A DNA stretch of 64,000 nucleotides. Source: a virus. Taxonomy: Duplodnaviria > Caudoviricetes. A model generated the notes under the pieces. It was not told the origin of the DNA and searched no databases. It was given only the letters and a program-made list of their open reading frames with translations. A program made the position numbers and the translations under genes. Below, one piece after another: positions 26,243-40,625 of the stretch (within the stretch, counting starts at the first letter, position 1; every line of letters starts with the position of its first letter). The stretch spans positions 160,001-224,000 of IMG/VR virus record IMGVR_UViG_3300031993_000006. The stretch is one strand, 5' to 3'.

Positions 26243-26321
26243 GCATATAACACATACGGTTCGGATATGGCAACGGCAATTTGCTATATTTGTAATAGTA
26301 TCGAGGAGTTGAACAAGTTGA

Positions 26322-27623
26322 ATGAATAAAGCAGAGCGACATGTCTATGCGTGCAGCTACTCGTTGCCATTCAAGGGCAACGAGGTTATCCTGAGCGCGA
26401 TGCACAAGGCAAAATCGCTCTACAATGCGACATTGTGGCATTACCGGCAGGCACTCGACGAACACCATAAGGCCAAGGAAGAAGGCCGAGACCCGCTCAC
26501 CGAATATCCCGACTACTACAAGATGGAAAGGAAGTTCCGCGACGAAAGGCAGATTAACTACTTCTCCCTTCCACAGAAGGTAAGCCAGCAAGTGCTTCGC
26601 GACGTTCAGTCGGATTGGAAGTCCTATGTGGCCCATGTCGTAAGGAACAAGTCTTATCCGCCGGGAAGCCCGGAAAGAAAGGAGCAGGTAAACCCGCCGA
26701 AATACAAGTACCGTGACGGATATGCTAGGTTGAGGTACACAAAGCAAGCGATTTCGTTTGTAAAATACCCCGGCAAGGCAACCCCTAGCGGGATAGATGT
26801 CGGGCTTGTCATACCTCCATTCATCGACCCAAAGAAAATACAGCAGATTGACATAGAGCCGGACGGTGCCGACTATATCCGAGTGACATTCATCTACAAG
26901 GTCGAGCTGTGCGGCCTCCTTGTTGATAACGGACGTGTCATGGGCATCGACATGGGTGTCACTAACCTGGCGACGTGCGGGACGAACGTTGGCCGCGGTA
27001 TCATCATTAACGGACGGCCAGTGAAATCAATCAATCAGTTCTTCAACAAGAGACTGGCTGCATTGAAGTCGGAAAACGACATTCTTCTTAAAAAGGAGAA
27101 CGAACGGAAAGTACAGACACAGAGACATCGTATCACAAGGAACATGGAGAGGCTCTTCAGAAAACGCAAGTACAAGATAAAGGATTACCTGCACAAGGCT
27201 GCATGTCGCATATTCGACTTCGTAGCGGAAAGCGGCATCACCACGATAGTGGTCGGAAAGAATGTAGGCTGGAAGCAAGAGTGTAACATGCAGAAGCAGA
27301 ATAACCAGAACTTCGTACAGATTCCGCATGCCAGATTCATCGACATGCTCGCCTACAAGGCGAGGGAACGAGGTATCGCATTTCTCACTGCCGAGGAGTC
27401 GTATACTTCCAAATGCTCCTTCGTCGATGGCGAGGAATTGTGCCATCACGATAAATACGTCGGTCAAAGAATAAGAAGAGGACTGTTCAGGACATCGAAG
27501 GGAATCCTTGTCAATGCAGACCTGAACGGGGCGCTCAACATAATAAGAAAAGTAATCCCCAATGCATTCGCTGAGGGGATAGAGGCGGTTATAGTTCCGC
27601 CACTACGTGCTATTGTCGCGTAA
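26322..27623 (+). CDS. tnpB: Free-standing TnpB RNA-guided endonuclease
   Basis: KSLYN, RuvC-I MGIDMG, DYLHKA, IVVGKN.GWKQ, EESYTSKCS, RuvC-III NADLNGALNI. No tnpA nearby. Confidence 0.9.
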   Translation: MNKAERHVYACSYSLPFKGNEVILSAMHKAKSLYNATLWHYRQALDEHHKAKEEGRDPLTEYPDYYKMERKFRDERQINYFSLPQKVSQQVLRDVQSDWKSYVAHVVRNKSYPPGSPERKEQVNPPKYKYRDGYARLRYTKQAISFVKYPGKATPSGIDVGLVIPPFIDPKKIQQIDIEPDGADYIRVTFIYKVELCGLLVDNGRVMGIDMGVTNLATCGTNVGRGIIINGRPVKSINQFFNKRLAALKSENDILLKKENERKVQTQRHRITRNMERLFRKRKYKIKDYLHKAACRIFDFVAESGITTIVVGKNVGWKQECNMQKQNNQNFVQIPHARFIDMLAYKARERGIAFLTAEESYTSKCSFVDGEELCHHDKYVGQRIRRGLFRTSKGILVNADLNGALNIIRKVIPNAFAEGIEAVIVPPLRAIVA

Positions 27624-27661: not shown

Positions 27662-29776
27662 ATGATTACTTTTATCGAATATTCCAAAATTGTAGAAGCC
27701 ATGGGCGAATGGGCCAAGACCTACGCGGCTGGCGAGAATACGGTCCCCGATACTGTCTGGGACCATAACCTTGTACTTATCAAGGAGTTCGAGGCGGCCA
27801 ACCCGTCTTTCATCCTTGCGACCTCTCCGACTCGTCATGTCGAAGATGGCGCCACGGGATTCCGTAAGGTAAAGCACGATATCCCGATGATGTCCATCGA
27901 GAACTCGAACGGTATCGAACAGACCAAGGAATGGGCGAACGGTATGTTCAACGATGGCGTTAAGGCTTTTGAGGCCGAGTATAAGATTGATGGTCTCAGT
28001 CTCGCGCTTAAGTATAAGGAAGGCGTCCTTGTGGACGCGGTGACACGAGGTCAGGATAATGTCGGCGACTCCGTATTTGAGAACGCTCTTCGTGTGCAGG
28101 GGGTGATAAAGAAGATTCCTCTTGCCGACGAAGCCGAAATTCGCGGTGAAGTTGTCTGGAAATATGCAGACTTCGAACCGTACAATGACAAGCTTATCAC
28201 CGAAGGCAAGAAGGCGTTTGCAAATCCGAGAAACGGAGCGTCCGGTACTCTTAAGCTCCACGACCCGGATGAAGTCGAACGCCGTAAGCTTTCTTTCATC
28301 GGTTACTTGATTGTTAAGGGTTCCCCTAATCGTTACCAGACGGATGATATCAAGACGCTTGAATCGATGGGCTTTGAAGTGCCGGAACATCACACGGCTA
28401 CGAACTTGGATGACCTCGTTAAGTATGCCGAATCGATGCGCGAACGCCGCTTTGAGCAAGCATATCCGATTGATGGTGTCGTGCTGAAGGTCGACGATAA
28501 GGATGACCAGCCGCGTTTTGGCCGTGCAACCAAGTCCCCGAACTATTTCCGCGCATATAAGTTCCCTCCTGAAGAAAAGGAGACCGAACTCGTTGATGTC
28601 GTGCCGTCTATCGGTATGTCCGGCGCGAATACTCCGGTCTGCATCGTCAAGCCGGTGCAACTTGCGATGACTACCGTTACTCGTATCACCGGTCATAACT
28701 GGGATACAGTGGAGTACCTCGGGTTGTACAAGGGTTGCCATGTGGTAATCCGCAAGGGTGGTGAAATTATTCCGGACTTGGTAAAGTGCGTTGAAACGGG
28801 CCGTTCCAAGGACAGTTACGATGTCGAACGCGAACTCTGCGACAAGAACAAGATTCCTCATGTCAGCCCGTGGGTTCCGACGACTGAAGAAGAAAAGGCT
28901 CGCGAACGCTATATTCGCCCGGCGACTTGCCCGTGCTGTGGCAAGCCACTCAGATGTGCTGTAAACTCTGAAGGAAAGGAATTGGTCAGCTGGGTATGCA
29001 CTAACGAAAACTGCCGTGCTCAGATTGGCGGTAAGCTCGCAAATTTCGTGGGCCGTGAATGCATGAACATCATGGGTATCGGGCCGAGTATCATCGAAGA
29101 CTTGCTGGTTGCCGGAAAACTTACCTTCTTCGACGACTTCTATCATCTTACGATGCAGGATTTTGTCGATGCTTGCGGAAAGCGTGAATCCGGCGCGAAG
29201 AAACTTGTTGCCGCAATCGAGAAGTCCCGTGGCAATTATCTTCATCAGCTCATTGAAGGGTTCTCGATTTCCGGGCTCGGCCACCAGGCTGCCCCGGCGG
29301 TAGCCGACTGTGTTGACCAGGTGGGCGGCCTTGCTGCACTTGCATCGCAGGACGCCGAGTATGTTTCCGAGGTGGCGGGAAAGTTCCGTGACCTCGCCGA
29401 TACCAAGGGCGTATCCAAGGAACTTGTCGATAAGTTCCTTGACTTCATCTGGAGCAACGGGGAGCGCATCCGCGAACTCGTGATGCTTGATGTGGCACAG
29501 AAGGTGAAGCCCGTGGTGTCTATGAAGCTTGCCGGCAAGGTATGCATTATGACGGGAACATTCGACGCCCTCGCCCGCGATGTGTTCAAGAATATGGTTA
29601 CCGAGAATGGCGGTACCATCTGTGGCTCTATCACCAAGAAGTGCAACCTTGTGCTTATGGGTGACGGCGCCGGTCCGGCAAAGAAGGCAGCCATCGAGAA
29701 GCTGACCCGTGCAGGCCAGAAAATCGATGTGTACACCCCGGAAACCCTCCAGCAGTTCCTCGACTTGCTGAAGTAG
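27662..29776 (+). CDS. ligA: NAD-dependent DNA ligase
   Basis: EYKIDG, TRG, EIRGEV, NPRNGASG, IDGVVLK, AYKFP, Zn finger CPCC..C..C, HhH and a C-terminal BRCT. Confidence 0.96.
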   Translation: MITFIEYSKIVEAMGEWAKTYAAGENTVPDTVWDHNLVLIKEFEAANPSFILATSPTRHVEDGATGFRKVKHDIPMMSIENSNGIEQTKEWANGMFNDGVKAFEAEYKIDGLSLALKYKEGVLVDAVTRGQDNVGDSVFENALRVQGVIKKIPLADEAEIRGEVVWKYADFEPYNDKLITEGKKAFANPRNGASGTLKLHDPDEVERRKLSFIGYLIVKGSPNRYQTDDIKTLESMGFEVPEHHTATNLDDLVKYAESMRERRFEQAYPIDGVVLKVDDKDDQPRFGRATKSPNYFRAYKFPPEEKETELVDVVPSIGMSGANTPVCIVKPVQLAMTTVTRITGHNWDTVEYLGLYKGCHVVIRKGGEIIPDLVKCVETGRSKDSYDVERELCDKNKIPHVSPWVPTTEEEKARERYIRPATCPCCGKPLRCAVNSEGKELVSWVCTNENCRAQIGGKLANFVGRECMNIMGIGPSIIEDLLVAGKLTFFDDFYHLTMQDFVDACGKRESGAKKLVAAIEKSRGNYLHQLIEGFSISGLGHQAAPAVADCVDQVGGLAALASQDAEYVSEVAGKFRDLADTKGVSKELVDKFLDFIWSNGERIRELVMLDVAQKVKPVVSMKLAGKVCIMTGTFDALARDVFKNMVTENGGTICGSITKKCNLVLMGDGAGPAKKAAIEKLTRAGQKIDVYTPETLQQFLDLLK

Positions 29777-29867
29777 AAAAAATATAAGCAAATATAGCCT
29801 TCACGGTTTGGAGATTTTGCTATATTTGTAACATAAGGCGAGAGACGGTGACGCCATCGAGCCTTAC

Positions 29868-29940
29868 GCGGGAGTAGCTCAGTTGGTAGAGCGTCGCCTT
29901 CCCAAGGCGAATGTCGGGGGTTCGAGTCCCCTCTCCCGCT
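29868..29940 (+). tRNA. tRNA-Gly(CCC)
   Basis: Canonical cloverleaf; anticodon arm TCGCC-TTCCCAA-GGCGA; no CCA. Confidence 0.95.
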
Positions 29941-29946
29941 CTCTAT

Positions 29947-30278
29947 AAAGTTGGCATTGACGCGTAGCGTCCCATAAGTGACTGGCCAAATAGTGTCGTG
30001 GGGTCCTGCCGACCGAAGCGATGCTTCCCTTAGGGAGTCCGTGGATTCAGCAATGGATTTGCGGATTACTTATGGAATGGTAAGTCGGACATAGGATTGC
30101 ACACTGCACTCTAGCAAGGTGGCGTCCTGGTGGTCGTGCTTGACGGTGTTATGGCCCTGCCGAAAGGTGGAACGCGGCTATGGTGCTGTTGTGCGGTTGA
30201 TGTACTGAGCGACCCCCCGCGGTTGTGAGAAGGTCCGAAAATCTGACAAGCCGGACGCTACGTCTCAATGCCAACTTT
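29947..30278 (+). ncRNA. Unclassified 332-nt structured RNA closed by a roughly 25-bp stem
   Basis: 29947-29972 pairs with 30253-30278 (14 + 10 perfect bp). Internal helix CATAAGT/ACTTATG; GCAA- and GAAA-capped hairpins. Confidence 0.75.
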
Positions 30279-30338
30279 TTGCTATATTTGAGTAGAGCGC
30301 TAAAAAAAGCCTCTACTTTTTTCATATATAGGAATATT

Positions 30339-32963
30339 ATGGCACAGAAAGAACTTGGCCCGGGAAGTGAAGGGGATGCGTACCGATACACTAAGAAAGT
30401 GTTGAAGTCATTGCCGAATGCATCGAGAGTCGAACATATCTACCGTGAAATCGCGCACAACAAGGGAATCTCCTCGTGGACCCGTGCTTGCTATGAGGAA
30501 CTGAGAACGCAGGTCTTCCGTGACGGCCAGTGCAAAATCAAGTTTGCCCCGGGTGTCGCCCGAATAGCATACGGCGAGCTCGAGTTCGGTACTGGCGACG
30601 AAGACTTCCGTCAGCTGGCTGACCTTAGAGATTTTGTTAGAATTATTAGCATCGCGCACTTTGAAACATTTACCCGACATCTTGCGCTTGATGGCAAGGA
30701 ACTGTCATTCAAGGATTTGGTCGAGCGCTTCGGTAATACGGTTTCTGCCAACTGGAAGGAACTGAAGGCTGAACTGCGCAACATCAAGTATGGACCGCGC
30801 CGTTACCAGATAATCTGGCTGGATTCTTTCGCTACCGCGCACAAGTACTATGAATACACCAAGCCCCACAACTGGTGTCACTTGGGTAGCCTCAGCATGT
30901 TCCGAAGCTATTCATTCAACCGCAAGTCGTCCAAGGATGGCACTTCGCGCGTGTCCGTCGTGAAGCTTTATCTTGCTGTCCTTCCGGGATTCGAGACGAT
31001 GACCGAGGACAATCCGCTGTATGGCGAATCTATGCTCGGTATCGATATCGGGCCGGATGGCCGTCTCATCCATGTGAACAACAGGTGGAATCATTCGCAT
31101 GATAATGTTGACGACCGAAAGGGCGATAACAAGTATTCGGAGAAGGAACTTTCCGAGCTGCTCGGCGGTCCTTTCTACAAGATTTGCCCTCCGTTGACAA
31201 AGAGGGAAATGAACCACATTTCCGGCGAACTGAAGCGTCGCCGTGAAGAGGAGAACCGTGCGGCTGCTAACTGGGTTCGCGGGTTTGCCGACCGGGTTGC
31301 TAACGGTGTGCGCAGTAAGCCGGCCAAGGAAACTGAAAGTTTCGTCGATTCTCGCGATAATGTCGAATACCGTACCCGCAAGATTGGCGGGCTGCAGTGG
31401 ATGCTCGACCCGCTTTCACATATGATTATCTCTCCCATCAATACGCCGGAAAATATGGTGAAGCATAAGATGGCGGTCGCCAAAGATTGGGACGAGACGG
31501 ATAAGTTTAACGAGAAAGTTGCCAAGTTCAAAGCTGTTACGCAGGTGACCTATAACAAGGGCGAGGATAATACTGCGGACGATATCGATGAAGACTCTAC
31601 GGTTGAGACGGGCGAGATTGGGGAGGCAAAGTGGACCGAAGTGGGGGAGGAAGTGCGAACCTCGGAATCTTTATCTAGAGCCCCGTCTTATTGTCCGTTG
31701 GTATCAATGGAATCTGGCGGTCGACAGAATCTGTTCTTTGCTACGGACGTGACCAAGCTGTCCCGTGCATACCGTGGTTCGGCCGAACATATCGACCGAT
31801 ACCTTTCCGACTGCCTTGACTATCGCGAAAAGCGCTTGGCGGCGCTCAAGAAGAAGCCGGCGGAAAAACTCATGGGAGACGAGGTGAAGAAACCGTCCGT
31901 CTATAAGGATGATAACTATCTCACTGTGATGGAAAATGAACAGTGGAGCGCGGTCGAACTGATTACTCCGCTTGGATTCGAACCGTCGTCTCGTTCGGTT
32001 GAAAGCGGGTATAGAATAACTAATCAGAAAATGATTATCAACGATGTCAATCCGGGTAAGCAATTCGTGTACTACCAACCGGGCGATTTCGACAGCGTGA
32101 TTCCGGAAGGATGGCGCCTCCCCACGGTGGACGAGTTCGTTGCTATGGCGATGTCCTTTGGTGCAAAGGCGGTATTCCGTAGCAGTGTCGAATATGAGAA
32201 GGATAATTCAATTAATGTGTTCTGCCGTCTGAAAGCGGAAGATATCGTTGAAAAGGCTAGAAGGGCTCCGCATATCGAATTTTGCACGGCTGACCATCAG
32301 TTACGCCGCCGAATGTACGAAAGTGTCATTATTTCCGAAATCAAGAGGATTAGCGTAGATATCGATGATATTGTCGCACCTCCCAATACGCCGGATACAA
32401 TTGTTGTCGAGTCGAAACAGCCGGATGACCCGGATACCACTGAGCCGTTTCAGCACGACCCGACGGTTGACGATGAGCCGCAGGAAGTGATTGAAAACAT
32501 TCCTGCCGCGGTCGGGGTTAGGCTTCCGGACTTGGAGTTCGACATGGGCGATGCCGGGTTCGCTATTCCGAATTCGTCGAGTGCTCCGGCTGAGGCGGAA
32601 GACAGTGATGCCGCGGCGAAAATCCGTGACGGTGCGTTGTCGTTCACTAGATACCCGATTCTGCTGTCGCTTGCCGAAGAGTCTGACTTTGCCGATAACA
32701 AGTCGGTTAAGAAGTTTGACCGTATGTTCTATCGCTTTGACTCGGCGAAGGATGCTGTTCAGCAGCTTTACCTCGATGGTGACGAAGATGATGAGACTCG
32801 AGTGCTTGACTATAACCCGTTTCACCGGTCGACTAAGATTTTGCCTGTTCGGAAACGATATGCGTTTGCAAGGTGGGATTCCAAGCATAAGACATTCAGA
32901 ATCACGCCGTGCCAGAACGACCATAATTCGTCAAGGTATTGCCTGTTGTACGCGGTCAAGTAA
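30339..32963 (+). CDS. 874-aa multidomain protein with split FISUMP/Fib_succ_major-like motifs
   Basis: ATG after AGGA; FVDSRDNVEYRTRKIGGLQWM and IPEGWRLPTVDEF. Confidence 0.65.
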   Translation: MAQKELGPGSEGDAYRYTKKVLKSLPNASRVEHIYREIAHNKGISSWTRACYEELRTQVFRDGQCKIKFAPGVARIAYGELEFGTGDEDFRQLADLRDFVRIISIAHFETFTRHLALDGKELSFKDLVERFGNTVSANWKELKAELRNIKYGPRRYQIIWLDSFATAHKYYEYTKPHNWCHLGSLSMFRSYSFNRKSSKDGTSRVSVVKLYLAVLPGFETMTEDNPLYGESMLGIDIGPDGRLIHVNNRWNHSHDNVDDRKGDNKYSEKELSELLGGPFYKICPPLTKREMNHISGELKRRREEENRAAANWVRGFADRVANGVRSKPAKETESFVDSRDNVEYRTRKIGGLQWMLDPLSHMIISPINTPENMVKHKMAVAKDWDETDKFNEKVAKFKAVTQVTYNKGEDNTADDIDEDSTVETGEIGEAKWTEVGEEVRTSESLSRAPSYCPLVSMESGGRQNLFFATDVTKLSRAYRGSAEHIDRYLSDCLDYREKRLAALKKKPAEKLMGDEVKKPSVYKDDNYLTVMENEQWSAVELITPLGFEPSSRSVESGYRITNQKMIINDVNPGKQFVYYQPGDFDSVIPEGWRLPTVDEFVAMAMSFGAKAVFRSSVEYEKDNSINVFCRLKAEDIVEKARRAPHIEFCTADHQLRRRMYESVIISEIKRISVDIDDIVAPPNTPDTIVVESKQPDDPDTTEPFQHDPTVDDEPQEVIENIPAAVGVRLPDLEFDMGDAGFAIPNSSSAPAEAEDSDAAAKIRDGALSFTRYPILLSLAEESDFADNKSVKKFDRMFYRFDSAKDAVQQLYLDGDEDDETRVLDYNPFHRSTKILPVRKRYAFARWDSKHKTFRITPCQNDHNSSRYCLLYAVK

Positions 32964-38894: not shown

Positions 38895-39390
38895 GCCTAG
38901 TTTGACATGCCGACCGTGTTAAGGCTCTTCAGCAATGGAGTAGGACTAGGCAAGTTAGTCGTATTGCTTGATGCATATTAGGAATATCGCGTAGATGCGG
39001 CTGATTAAATGCCATTACGGCCTACCCAGCAATGGGCAAGGTAGGAAATCACATAGGTCTATCTCTTGGTAGATTTAAGTAGGTTTCAGTTAATGGTCTT
39101 CAGACTCTCCCAGTTAGCTTCTTAAGGGATGTCCTGTCGCATTACCAATACGCGGCGGTGAGTGGCAGGGCATCCCGCTTGAGTGTCTTCATTGGATAGA
39201 CGGGGACTCCCACTTTATGCACAGTAGGCCAAACGCACCTTCCAGCCAGGGTCACGATGCCCCTCCAGGTCCTGCCGGCGATATTGACGCCACGACTGAG
39301 GTGACGAGGTAACTGCGCAATATGAGGCGCCACGGCGCGGCGGTACCCACTGGCCGCGGGAGAAACAGTTGAGAGGCTGTTGCAGTGGGA
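38895..39390 (+). ncRNA. Ornate structured RNA region of about 500 nt (one large RNA or several)
   Basis: Begins just after the promoter variant at 38881. Helices GCCTAGT/ACTAGGC, a 15-bp helix at 39126-39140/39162-39176, and TCCCACT/AGTGGGA; CAGCAATG hairpins; no credible ORF. Confidence 0.6.
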
Positions 39391-40545: not shown

Positions 40546-40625
40546 CGGGGTGTAGTTCAGCCAGGTTATTATAGAGTGCTTGCTTTGGAAGCAAGATGTC
40601 GTCAGTTCGAATCTGGCTACCCCGA
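40546..40625 (+). tRNA. tRNA-Pro(TGG), A37 variant
   Basis: CTTGC-TTTGGAA-GCAAG; C1-G72; enlarged D loop. Confidence 0.88.

Follow-up and report, generated by a model that had tools for sequence, protein, structure and literature searches.

The gene for a structured RNA of a new family lies directly behind a tRNA gene in a jumbo phage. On balance, comparison of homologs suggests that the gene specifies a stable RNA that acts in trans and associates with itself into homodimers or larger assemblies. New here are three single-stranded sites in the 5' domain that carry lineage-specific words and are still palindromic. These sites, which a sequence-only reading of the same DNA had missed, are the first mechanistic lead. 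The window (the whole stretch of 64,000 nucleotides that was analyzed) comprises bases 160001 to 224000 of a 259,974-bp IMG/VR virus record that is 91% complete according to CheckV, and positions given below are those of the window.

Genomic setting and transcription

ARAGORN places 24 tRNA genes in the window, with tRNA-Gly(CCC) upstream of the structured RNA and 23 more downstream (Table 1). As the end of tRNA-Gly(CCC) falls at 29941 (ARAGORN) or 29940 (Rfam), the closing stem of the RNA begins 5 to 6 nt further on, in line with the spacing of 6 nt claimed by the sequence-only reading. The bases beyond the discriminator, read directly from the sequence, are not CCA. Rfam additionally calls a tRNA at 40546 to 40625 (49.2 bits) that is missing from the ARAGORN list and may be a 25th tRNA or a tRNA-like gene. 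Also within the tRNA island is an ORF-poor, promoter-preceded stretch, 38895 to 39390, with no Rfam match at the gathering score; the only element it shares with the RNA studied here is a common GCAA hairpin word, which is not significant. The corresponding CAGCAAUG hairpin is not significantly enriched, with 9 copies seen versus 4 expected and 3 of 100 shuffles reaching 9.

A promoter-like box, TTTTGCTATATTTG, precedes tRNA-Gly(CCC), and the identical 14-mer recurs at the 3' end of the RNA, where the U-run (30275 to 30279) overlaps the box, as the sequence-only reading had also seen. The 12-nt core of the box, TTGCTATATTTG, is found 12 times in the window, versus 0.33 expected, always on the + strand and at sites from 26281 to 56577. 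The copies stand upstream of genes and tRNA blocks. This core is likely the main promoter motif of the phage, which we take to be of the TAnnTTTG type known from Bacteroidota. The box is conserved before tRNA-Gly in relatives, and the order of promoter box, tRNA-Gly(CCC), and RNA is kept in all loci except that of relative L274. The arrangement suggests that the RNA is co-transcribed with tRNA-Gly(CCC) from the upstream box.

A hairpin also occupies the terminator position in most relatives; its sequence is not that of the window, and a U-rich run comes after it in all of them but L140. The hairpin of the window was missed by an automated terminator scan with a loop limit of 8 nt. At 30277 to 30322, and at the equivalent position in relatives, a terminator-like hairpin of phage-specific sequence comes immediately after a promoter box. 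Since the likely start site lies inside the 5' arm of the hairpin, transcripts arriving from upstream would stop there, while transcripts starting at the box would lack the hairpin.

Further upstream, at 26281 to 27623, the window carries a TnpB gene (433 aa; OrfB_IS605 and Cas12f1-like TNB domains) with its own promoter box, located between an ORF of 228 aa and ligA. In the close relative L132, ligA comes directly after the 228-aa ORF, indicating that the tnpB unit is a recent insertion in the phage of the window.

Table 1. Features of the structured RNA locus, in window coordinates
Feature	Position	Strand	Basis or remark
Promoter-like box TTTTGCTATATTTG, 14 nt	29815-29828	+	Before tRNA-Gly; identical 14-mer at 30277-30290
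tRNA-Gly(CCC)	29868-29941	+	ARAGORN; Rfam tRNA, 71.8 bits; no encoded CCA
Structured RNA, long form, about 332 nt	29947-30278	+	Fold and homologs
P1, 5' strand; pairs with 30254-30278, 24 bp in consensus fold	29947-29971	+	Arms and consensus
P2, 5' strand; pairs with 30067-30075, 9 bp; closes 5' domain	29972-29980	+	Consensus fold
Site A, single-stranded palindrome UGGCCA	29983-29988	+	Palindrome comparison
P2a hairpin, 8 bp plus 4 bp, loop 30006-30010	29992-30025	+	Consensus; stem covariation
Site C, loop hexamer CUGCCG	30006-30011	+	One base off CUGCAG of three closest relatives
Site B, UCCC-UUA-GGGA; mini-hairpin or near-palindrome with central U.U	30026-30036	+	Consensus and palindrome comparison
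P2b hairpin, GCAA tetraloop 30050-30053	30037-30066	+	Long form only; absent from short, L140, L274, and mini forms
3' domain: P3 stack (30079-30104 with 30225-30252) around P4 hairpin, P5 rod, and small hairpins	30079-30252	+	Consensus fold
P5: 15-bp helix with 7 G.U pairs, 5-bp tip stem, GAAA loop 30162-30165, 5-nt bulge	30142-30190	+	Consensus fold
P1, 3' strand, then U-run	30254-30278	+	Arms and consensus
Second promoter-like box TTTTGCTATATTTG, for next gene	30277-30290	+	Follows RNA in most relatives, but not in L140 or L275
Terminator-like hairpin: 6-bp stem 30292-30297 with 30311-30316, 13-nt loop, then U6	30292-30322	+	Sequence read
874-aa ORF, neighbor, not shown to be a partner	30339-32963	+	82 homologs

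Fold of the window copy

The ends of the RNA had been said to pair over about 25 bp and to enclose multibranch domains with GNRA loops. Both points hold. The arms, 29947 to 29972 and 30253 to 30278, are 26 nt each and form 24 Watson-Crick pairs, one G:U pair, and one C.C mismatch, and the enclosed fold is multibranched, with GCAA and GAAA tetraloops at the positions given in Table 1. For a 344-nt stretch compared with 100 dinucleotide shuffles, the minimum free energy is -145.8 kcal/mol on the + strand (z = -6.15) and -117.7 kcal/mol on the - strand (z = -5.6). As the - strand value is also low, the z-score reflects the inverted repeat and by itself picks no strand. The four long forms yielded a consensus with 115 pairs, which was mapped onto the coordinates of the window. 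At about 30194 to 30195 in the 3' domain, the window is without a 7-nt tandem duplication (GGUUGCU) that is seen in its two closest relatives, L263 and L132; the length of the indel is not divisible by three, which fits a noncoding region.

Homologs in related jumbo phages

Relatives were reached through the neighboring NAD-ligase and 874-aa ORF on contigs from IMG/VR, JGI, ENA, and Logan assemblies. This gave 20 distinct homologs of about 223 to 347 nt, falling into five lineages (Table 2), all from related jumbo phages of rumen or bovine metagenomes. Several contigs are labeled bovine metagenome or have Fib_succ_major domains nearby, from which we infer that the host is probably a rumen Fibrobacter-like bacterium. 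The RNA is present as a single copy in the 260-kb record and in each genome searched.

The gap between tRNA-Gly(CCC) and the RNA is 1 to 7 nt in all loci except L274. There, a DUF559 / MTES_1575 homing-endonuclease-like gene (303 to 1535 of L274) is located between the two, and a promoter box that serves the RNA itself is found shortly before P1, which supports a discrete RNA with its 5' end at the stem. DUF559 / MTES_1575-like genes are also found near the tRNA islands of L136, L137, and L275. In a more distant phage (G002), an ORF comes directly after tRNA-Gly(CCC). In G001, the RNA was not found by covariance model R1 (described below) alone, which is weak evidence, as R1 also misses members of the mini group (L275 and L271); the RNA of L271 was recognized by sequence reading.

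Searches outside this group were negative. A blastn search of the RNA against 50,697 GenBank phage records gave no match, and a scan of IMG/VR for the promoter-junction pattern returned only two known relatives and one chance match. A P1 pattern retrieved 93 stretches from IMG/VR, with a matching 3' arm in none of the 92 that were read, a result of uncertain recall given that the known member G004 is not among the 93. In these searches, the family appears to be confined to a clade of rumen jumbo phages.

Table 2. Lineages of the RNA and the words found at sites A, B, and C
Lineage	Members	Length	Site A	Site B	Site C (P2a loop)
Long	Window, L263, L132, L134	339-347 nt as trimmed	UGGCCA	12-nt perfect palindrome (L134); elsewhere near-palindrome	CUGCAG (L134, L132, L263); CUGCCG (window)
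Short	12 sequences	about 260 nt	UGGCCA	CCUAGG	G-UUCGAA-A
L140 / L270	2 sequences	about 268 nt	GUAUAC (L140)	CCUAGG (L140)	UUGCAA (L140)
L274	1 sequence	262 nt	GGGCCC / UGGGCCCA	CUCGAG	G-UUCGAA-A
Mini	L275, L288, L271	about 223 nt	GUGCAC	near-palindrome	UUGCAA

Covariation and the RNA strand

RNAalifold on the 12 short forms predicted 91 pairs, and a covariance model, R1, was built from these 12 sequences. Compensatory double changes occur in 24 of the 91 pairs within the short group. R1 aligns L140, L270, and L274 at 62 to 67 bits and the long forms at 28 to 33 bits, the latter through P1, P2, and P3. In a 15-sequence alignment of three lineages, which was fitted to R1 and somewhat favors it, 94.5% of cells are paired, compared to 83% in shuffles and about 40% with the partners slid, and 48 of the 91 pairs change on both sides; none of 500 shuffles reaches any of these measures.

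The individual helices tell the same story. P1 has 21 to 26 pairs in every lineage, with different sequences, and P2 is complementary in six different sequences across lineages, with a single mismatch in L134. For the P2a stem, covariation is seen when the window is compared with L134 and also within the mini group. Hand-checked representatives of all five lineages keep P1, P2, and P2a complementary with different sequences, and single mismatches are seen only in L134 (P2 and P2a) and L276 (P2a). The lineages share a common plan of P1, followed by a 5' domain under P2 with segment A, P2a and its loop C, and segment B, and then by a 3' rod; hairpin P2b and further branches of the 3' domain are additions of the long form. 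At the tip of the rod, the signature GGCC, GNRA hairpin, bulge (5 to 7 nt), GGCU is common to four of the five lineages, while L140 pairs only 2 of 3.

Across the 20 homologous loci, compensatory changes put the fold far beyond chance, with the number of independent events limited by the origin of all five lineages in one phage clade. As for orientation, R1 scores 296 bits on the + strand versus 33 bits on the - strand, and 7 of the 15 pairs of P5 are G.U and would be A.C on the other strand, which identifies + as the RNA strand. We conclude that this is almost certainly a real structured RNA encoded on the + strand.

Comparison with catalogued RNA families

Using cmscan, none of the 4,227 families of Rfam 15 matches the RNA at the gathering score, and with permissive filters none matches at E <= 10 in the 801 nt from 29700 to 30500 except tRNA. 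Representatives of the four other lineages likewise gave no match to the RNA at E <= 1. One 33-nt cmsearch match obtained with filters off is spurious and probably reflects a hit-length limit. The sequence-only reading had reported that the RNase P motif and tmRNA ends are lacking, and the model searches agree: the GAGGAAAGUCC-type CR-I and CR-V core is absent from the window RNA and the short forms, with no RNase P model match, and neither ARAGORN nor the Rfam tmRNA models identify a tmRNA on the RNA. There is no match to the YrlA model (RF02553), and the TROVE domain is absent from the phage record. The models for 6S, SRP, intron, and OLE RNAs are without a match in any lineage tested. Taken with the strong covariation among homologs and the separate promoter of L274, these results uphold the earlier proposal of a discrete large noncoding RNA outside the known classes.

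The RNA very probably belongs to no catalogued family. We found no paper describing it; the unnamed candidates of PMC10690425, which number in the thousands, may include it.

Palindromic sites in the 5' domain

Three unpaired sites, located about 40, 62, and 85 nt into each sequence as trimmed, contain palindromes of at least 6 nt whose words differ by lineage (Table 2). Site A is a perfect palindrome of at least 6 nt in every copy tested, with four words. Site C, with three words, is palindromic in all tested copies but that of the window, where one base breaks the palindrome; the loop of L273, which was outside the palindrome test, is likewise interrupted by one base. At site B, three words are perfectly palindromic; elsewhere the site is a near-palindrome with a central U.U or wobble, and in the long form it can alternatively fold as an intramolecular mini-hairpin of 4 bp.

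In composition-preserving shuffles, the probability of a palindrome per segment is 0.03 to 0.30. Counting distinct words as independent events, sites A and C are each near 1e-3 or below, in a test that was made post hoc and on segments delimited by hand. The signal lies in the fixed positions and not in the number of palindromes, as the total of hexamer palindromes per RNA is not above that of shuffles. L274, for example, has four hexamer palindromes, three of which coincide exactly with sites A, B, and C.

Symmetric kissing loops are expected to be unpaired and to stay palindromic while their sequence changes, and this is what the family shows at sites A and C; in the window, site A is intact. 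A palindrome of 6 nt is unable to fold back on itself in a single molecule. Contact from one chain to another is therefore the simplest interpretation, and we consider it probable that copies of the RNA self-associate through the palindromes. An alternative in which site A pairs with the tip-helix GGCC was considered as well; it is possible in three lineages and impossible in L140 and the mini group, and was rejected.

The neighboring 874-aa ORF

The ORF downstream of the RNA has no Pfam, PHROG, or PDB sequence match, and a contig search with its product found no relative in 185,579 species genomes. Among 25 homologs, the N-terminal region of about 290 aa is extremely conserved, with many invariant residues, while the C-terminal part is variable; some homologs carry Fib_succ_major. 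A structural model of the N-terminal region (pLDDT 82) had no match in Foldseek, and VIA-align matched only its long helix (Z < 5). Scores from the ESM Atlas reached only about 0.8.

Proposed mechanism and alternatives

We propose that the RNA is transcribed from the phage promoter together with tRNA-Gly(CCC). As this tRNA has no encoded CCA, the 5' end of the RNA would be released by processing of the tRNA 3' end, and the 3' end would be set by the P1 stem and U-run or by the hairpin terminator just downstream. As the covariation shows, P1 holds together two domains, a 5' domain presenting sites A, B, and C and a 3' domain consisting of a G.U-rich rod with a GNRA hairpin beside a purine-rich bulge. 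Two or more copies would bind through these sites, and the product would be a homodimer or a larger assembly made of RNA only, comparable to OLE, ROOL, and GOLLD. Candidate roles include scaffolding, caging, or acting as a decoy for something tied to the phage tRNAs or to the takeover of translation. A bolder version, which we think rather unlikely, is a compact, protein-free, self-assembling particle in which three two-fold contacts per chain of 223 to 347 nt could generate a closed cage or lattice. If true, its building block would be much smaller than ROOL or GOLLD and would be made along with phage tRNA during infection.

The palindromes could instead belong to a monomeric RNA with a protein or RNA partner, such as an RNP scaffold, sponge, or decoy, and bind a symmetric protein dimer or other RNAs, for example the T-loops of tRNAs. 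The short-form loop G-UUCGAA-A does resemble a T-loop, the gene lies in a tRNA context, and a conserved 874-aa protein usually adjoins the RNA. However, the variation of the words between lineages speaks against both a T-loop target and a protein site of defined sequence, and UUGCAA and CUGCAG are not T-loop-like. In L288, L271, and L274, two extra ORFs part the RNA from the 874-aa ORF, so the constant partner is the tRNA and not this ORF. Moreover, Ro60/TROVE, reverse transcriptase (PF00078, in a search that detected its controls), RNase III, and RtcB are all absent from the 260-kb phage record. We therefore regard a monomer with a partner as unlikely. It is less likely still, and in our view improbable, that the RNA is a cis-acting element of the tRNA-Gly transcript, either an RNase III-type processing stalk or a leader that controls the ORF behind it, and that the free molecule has no function. 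Some room for a cis role is left by L275, where the ribosome-binding site of the next ORF follows directly after P1 with no promoter between, and by L140, which is also without the box; a duplex of 21 to 26 bp joining both RNA ends would suit a stalk. Against this, a promoter box and terminator-like hairpin separate the RNA from the ORF in the window and most relatives, the gene that lies downstream varies from locus to locus, and the covarying internal structure of about 200 to 280 nt with conserved loops goes far beyond what a processing stem needs.

The remaining explanations fare much worse. A retron-like msr-msd or other template RNA is suggested by the architecture, with P1, a 5' domain, and a 3' rod, and by the ORF that comes after the RNA, but with no reverse transcriptase domain in the 260-kb genome or in the 874-aa neighbor this idea is close to refuted. 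The RNA might also be a divergent representative of an established class (RNase P RNA, tmRNA, 6S, SRP, group I intron, ROOL, GOLLD, or Y RNA); its size and closing stem are compatible with several of these, and by eye a stretch of the long form is faintly like the P4 region of RNase P. That stretch is absent from the short forms, and the model and ARAGORN searches described above make such membership very improbable. Lastly, the 26-bp terminal inverted repeats and several 6-bp palindromes might mark a DNA-level element, namely a MITE with inverted ends, which the sequence-only reading had named as an alternative, or a site of replication or packaging. The MITE fails since the RNA is single copy, occupies the same locus in all relatives, and shows no target-site duplication, its flanks being different. 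A DNA-level function in general is practically refuted, as the numerous G:U pairs would turn into A.C mismatches in DNA and on the opposite strand, and the model score depends so strongly on the strand.

Relationship to known RNAs

The self-associating RNA that we favor has partial counterparts among phage and bacterial systems. Similar in setting are the T4 species 1 and 2 RNAs, which are stable non-tRNA genes in or near the phage tRNA genes, released by tRNA processing. The tRNA cluster setting is similar here, but there is no sequence relationship (blastn, 50,697 phage records), and hosts and folds differ. In retron msr-msd RNAs, the ends pair in a long a1/a2 stem around a 5' stem-loop part and a long 3' hairpin, much as P1 encloses the 5' domain and 3' rod. 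This is a resemblance only, as the phage record lacks a reverse transcriptase and the neighboring ORF is without a Pfam domain. The pRNA of phi29 is a phage RNA that oligomerizes via loop-loop pairing as part of the packaging motor. Its two loops are different and complementary and are not palindromes, and we see no link to packaging in the RNA described here. In its geometry, site C is like the HIV-1 dimerization initiation site: a 6-nt palindrome with unpaired flanks in a hairpin loop of 8 to 10 nt, which is the arrangement of a kissing-loop dimer. The molecules are unrelated.

The switching of palindromes has a precedent in OLE, described in PMC3413148 as a bacterial RNA of extremophilic anaerobes. 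Kretsch and co-workers argued from palindrome switching for intermolecular contacts at OLE L9.3 and GOLLD L21a, contacts that are seen by cryo-EM (bioRxiv 10.1101/2024.12.08.627333). In the OLE dimer loop L9.3, the inner bases switch palindromes between species (bioRxiv 10.1101/2024.12.08.627333), as they do at sites A, B, and C between lineages. OLE works with protein partners, and there is no homology between it and the RNA of the window.

ROOL (RF03087) and GOLLD (RF02032) are like the window RNA in being phage-encoded, often beside tRNA genes, with an elaborate covarying fold and no known protein partner. They share no sequence or covariance-model similarity with it. ROOL is roughly 580 nt in length. 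GOLLD exceeds 800 nt in many members (bioRxiv 10.1101/2024.12.08.627333), compared to 223 to 347 nt here. Both large RNAs form RNA-only cages whose copies are held together by self-complementary or kissing loops (bioRxiv 10.1101/2024.12.08.627333), whereas the RNA of the window has a simple two-domain plan under a long stem, and its assembly is predicted from sequence. It is a well-supported family that would be new to Rfam and to the annotation of rumen jumbo phages. With 223 to 347 nt, two domains, and three candidate interfaces open to designed mutation and rescue, it should be easier to study than ROOL or GOLLD. A third, unrelated, and much smaller family with the genomic habit and the pairing signature of ROOL and GOLLD suggests that self-assembling RNAs are a recurrent invention of phages.
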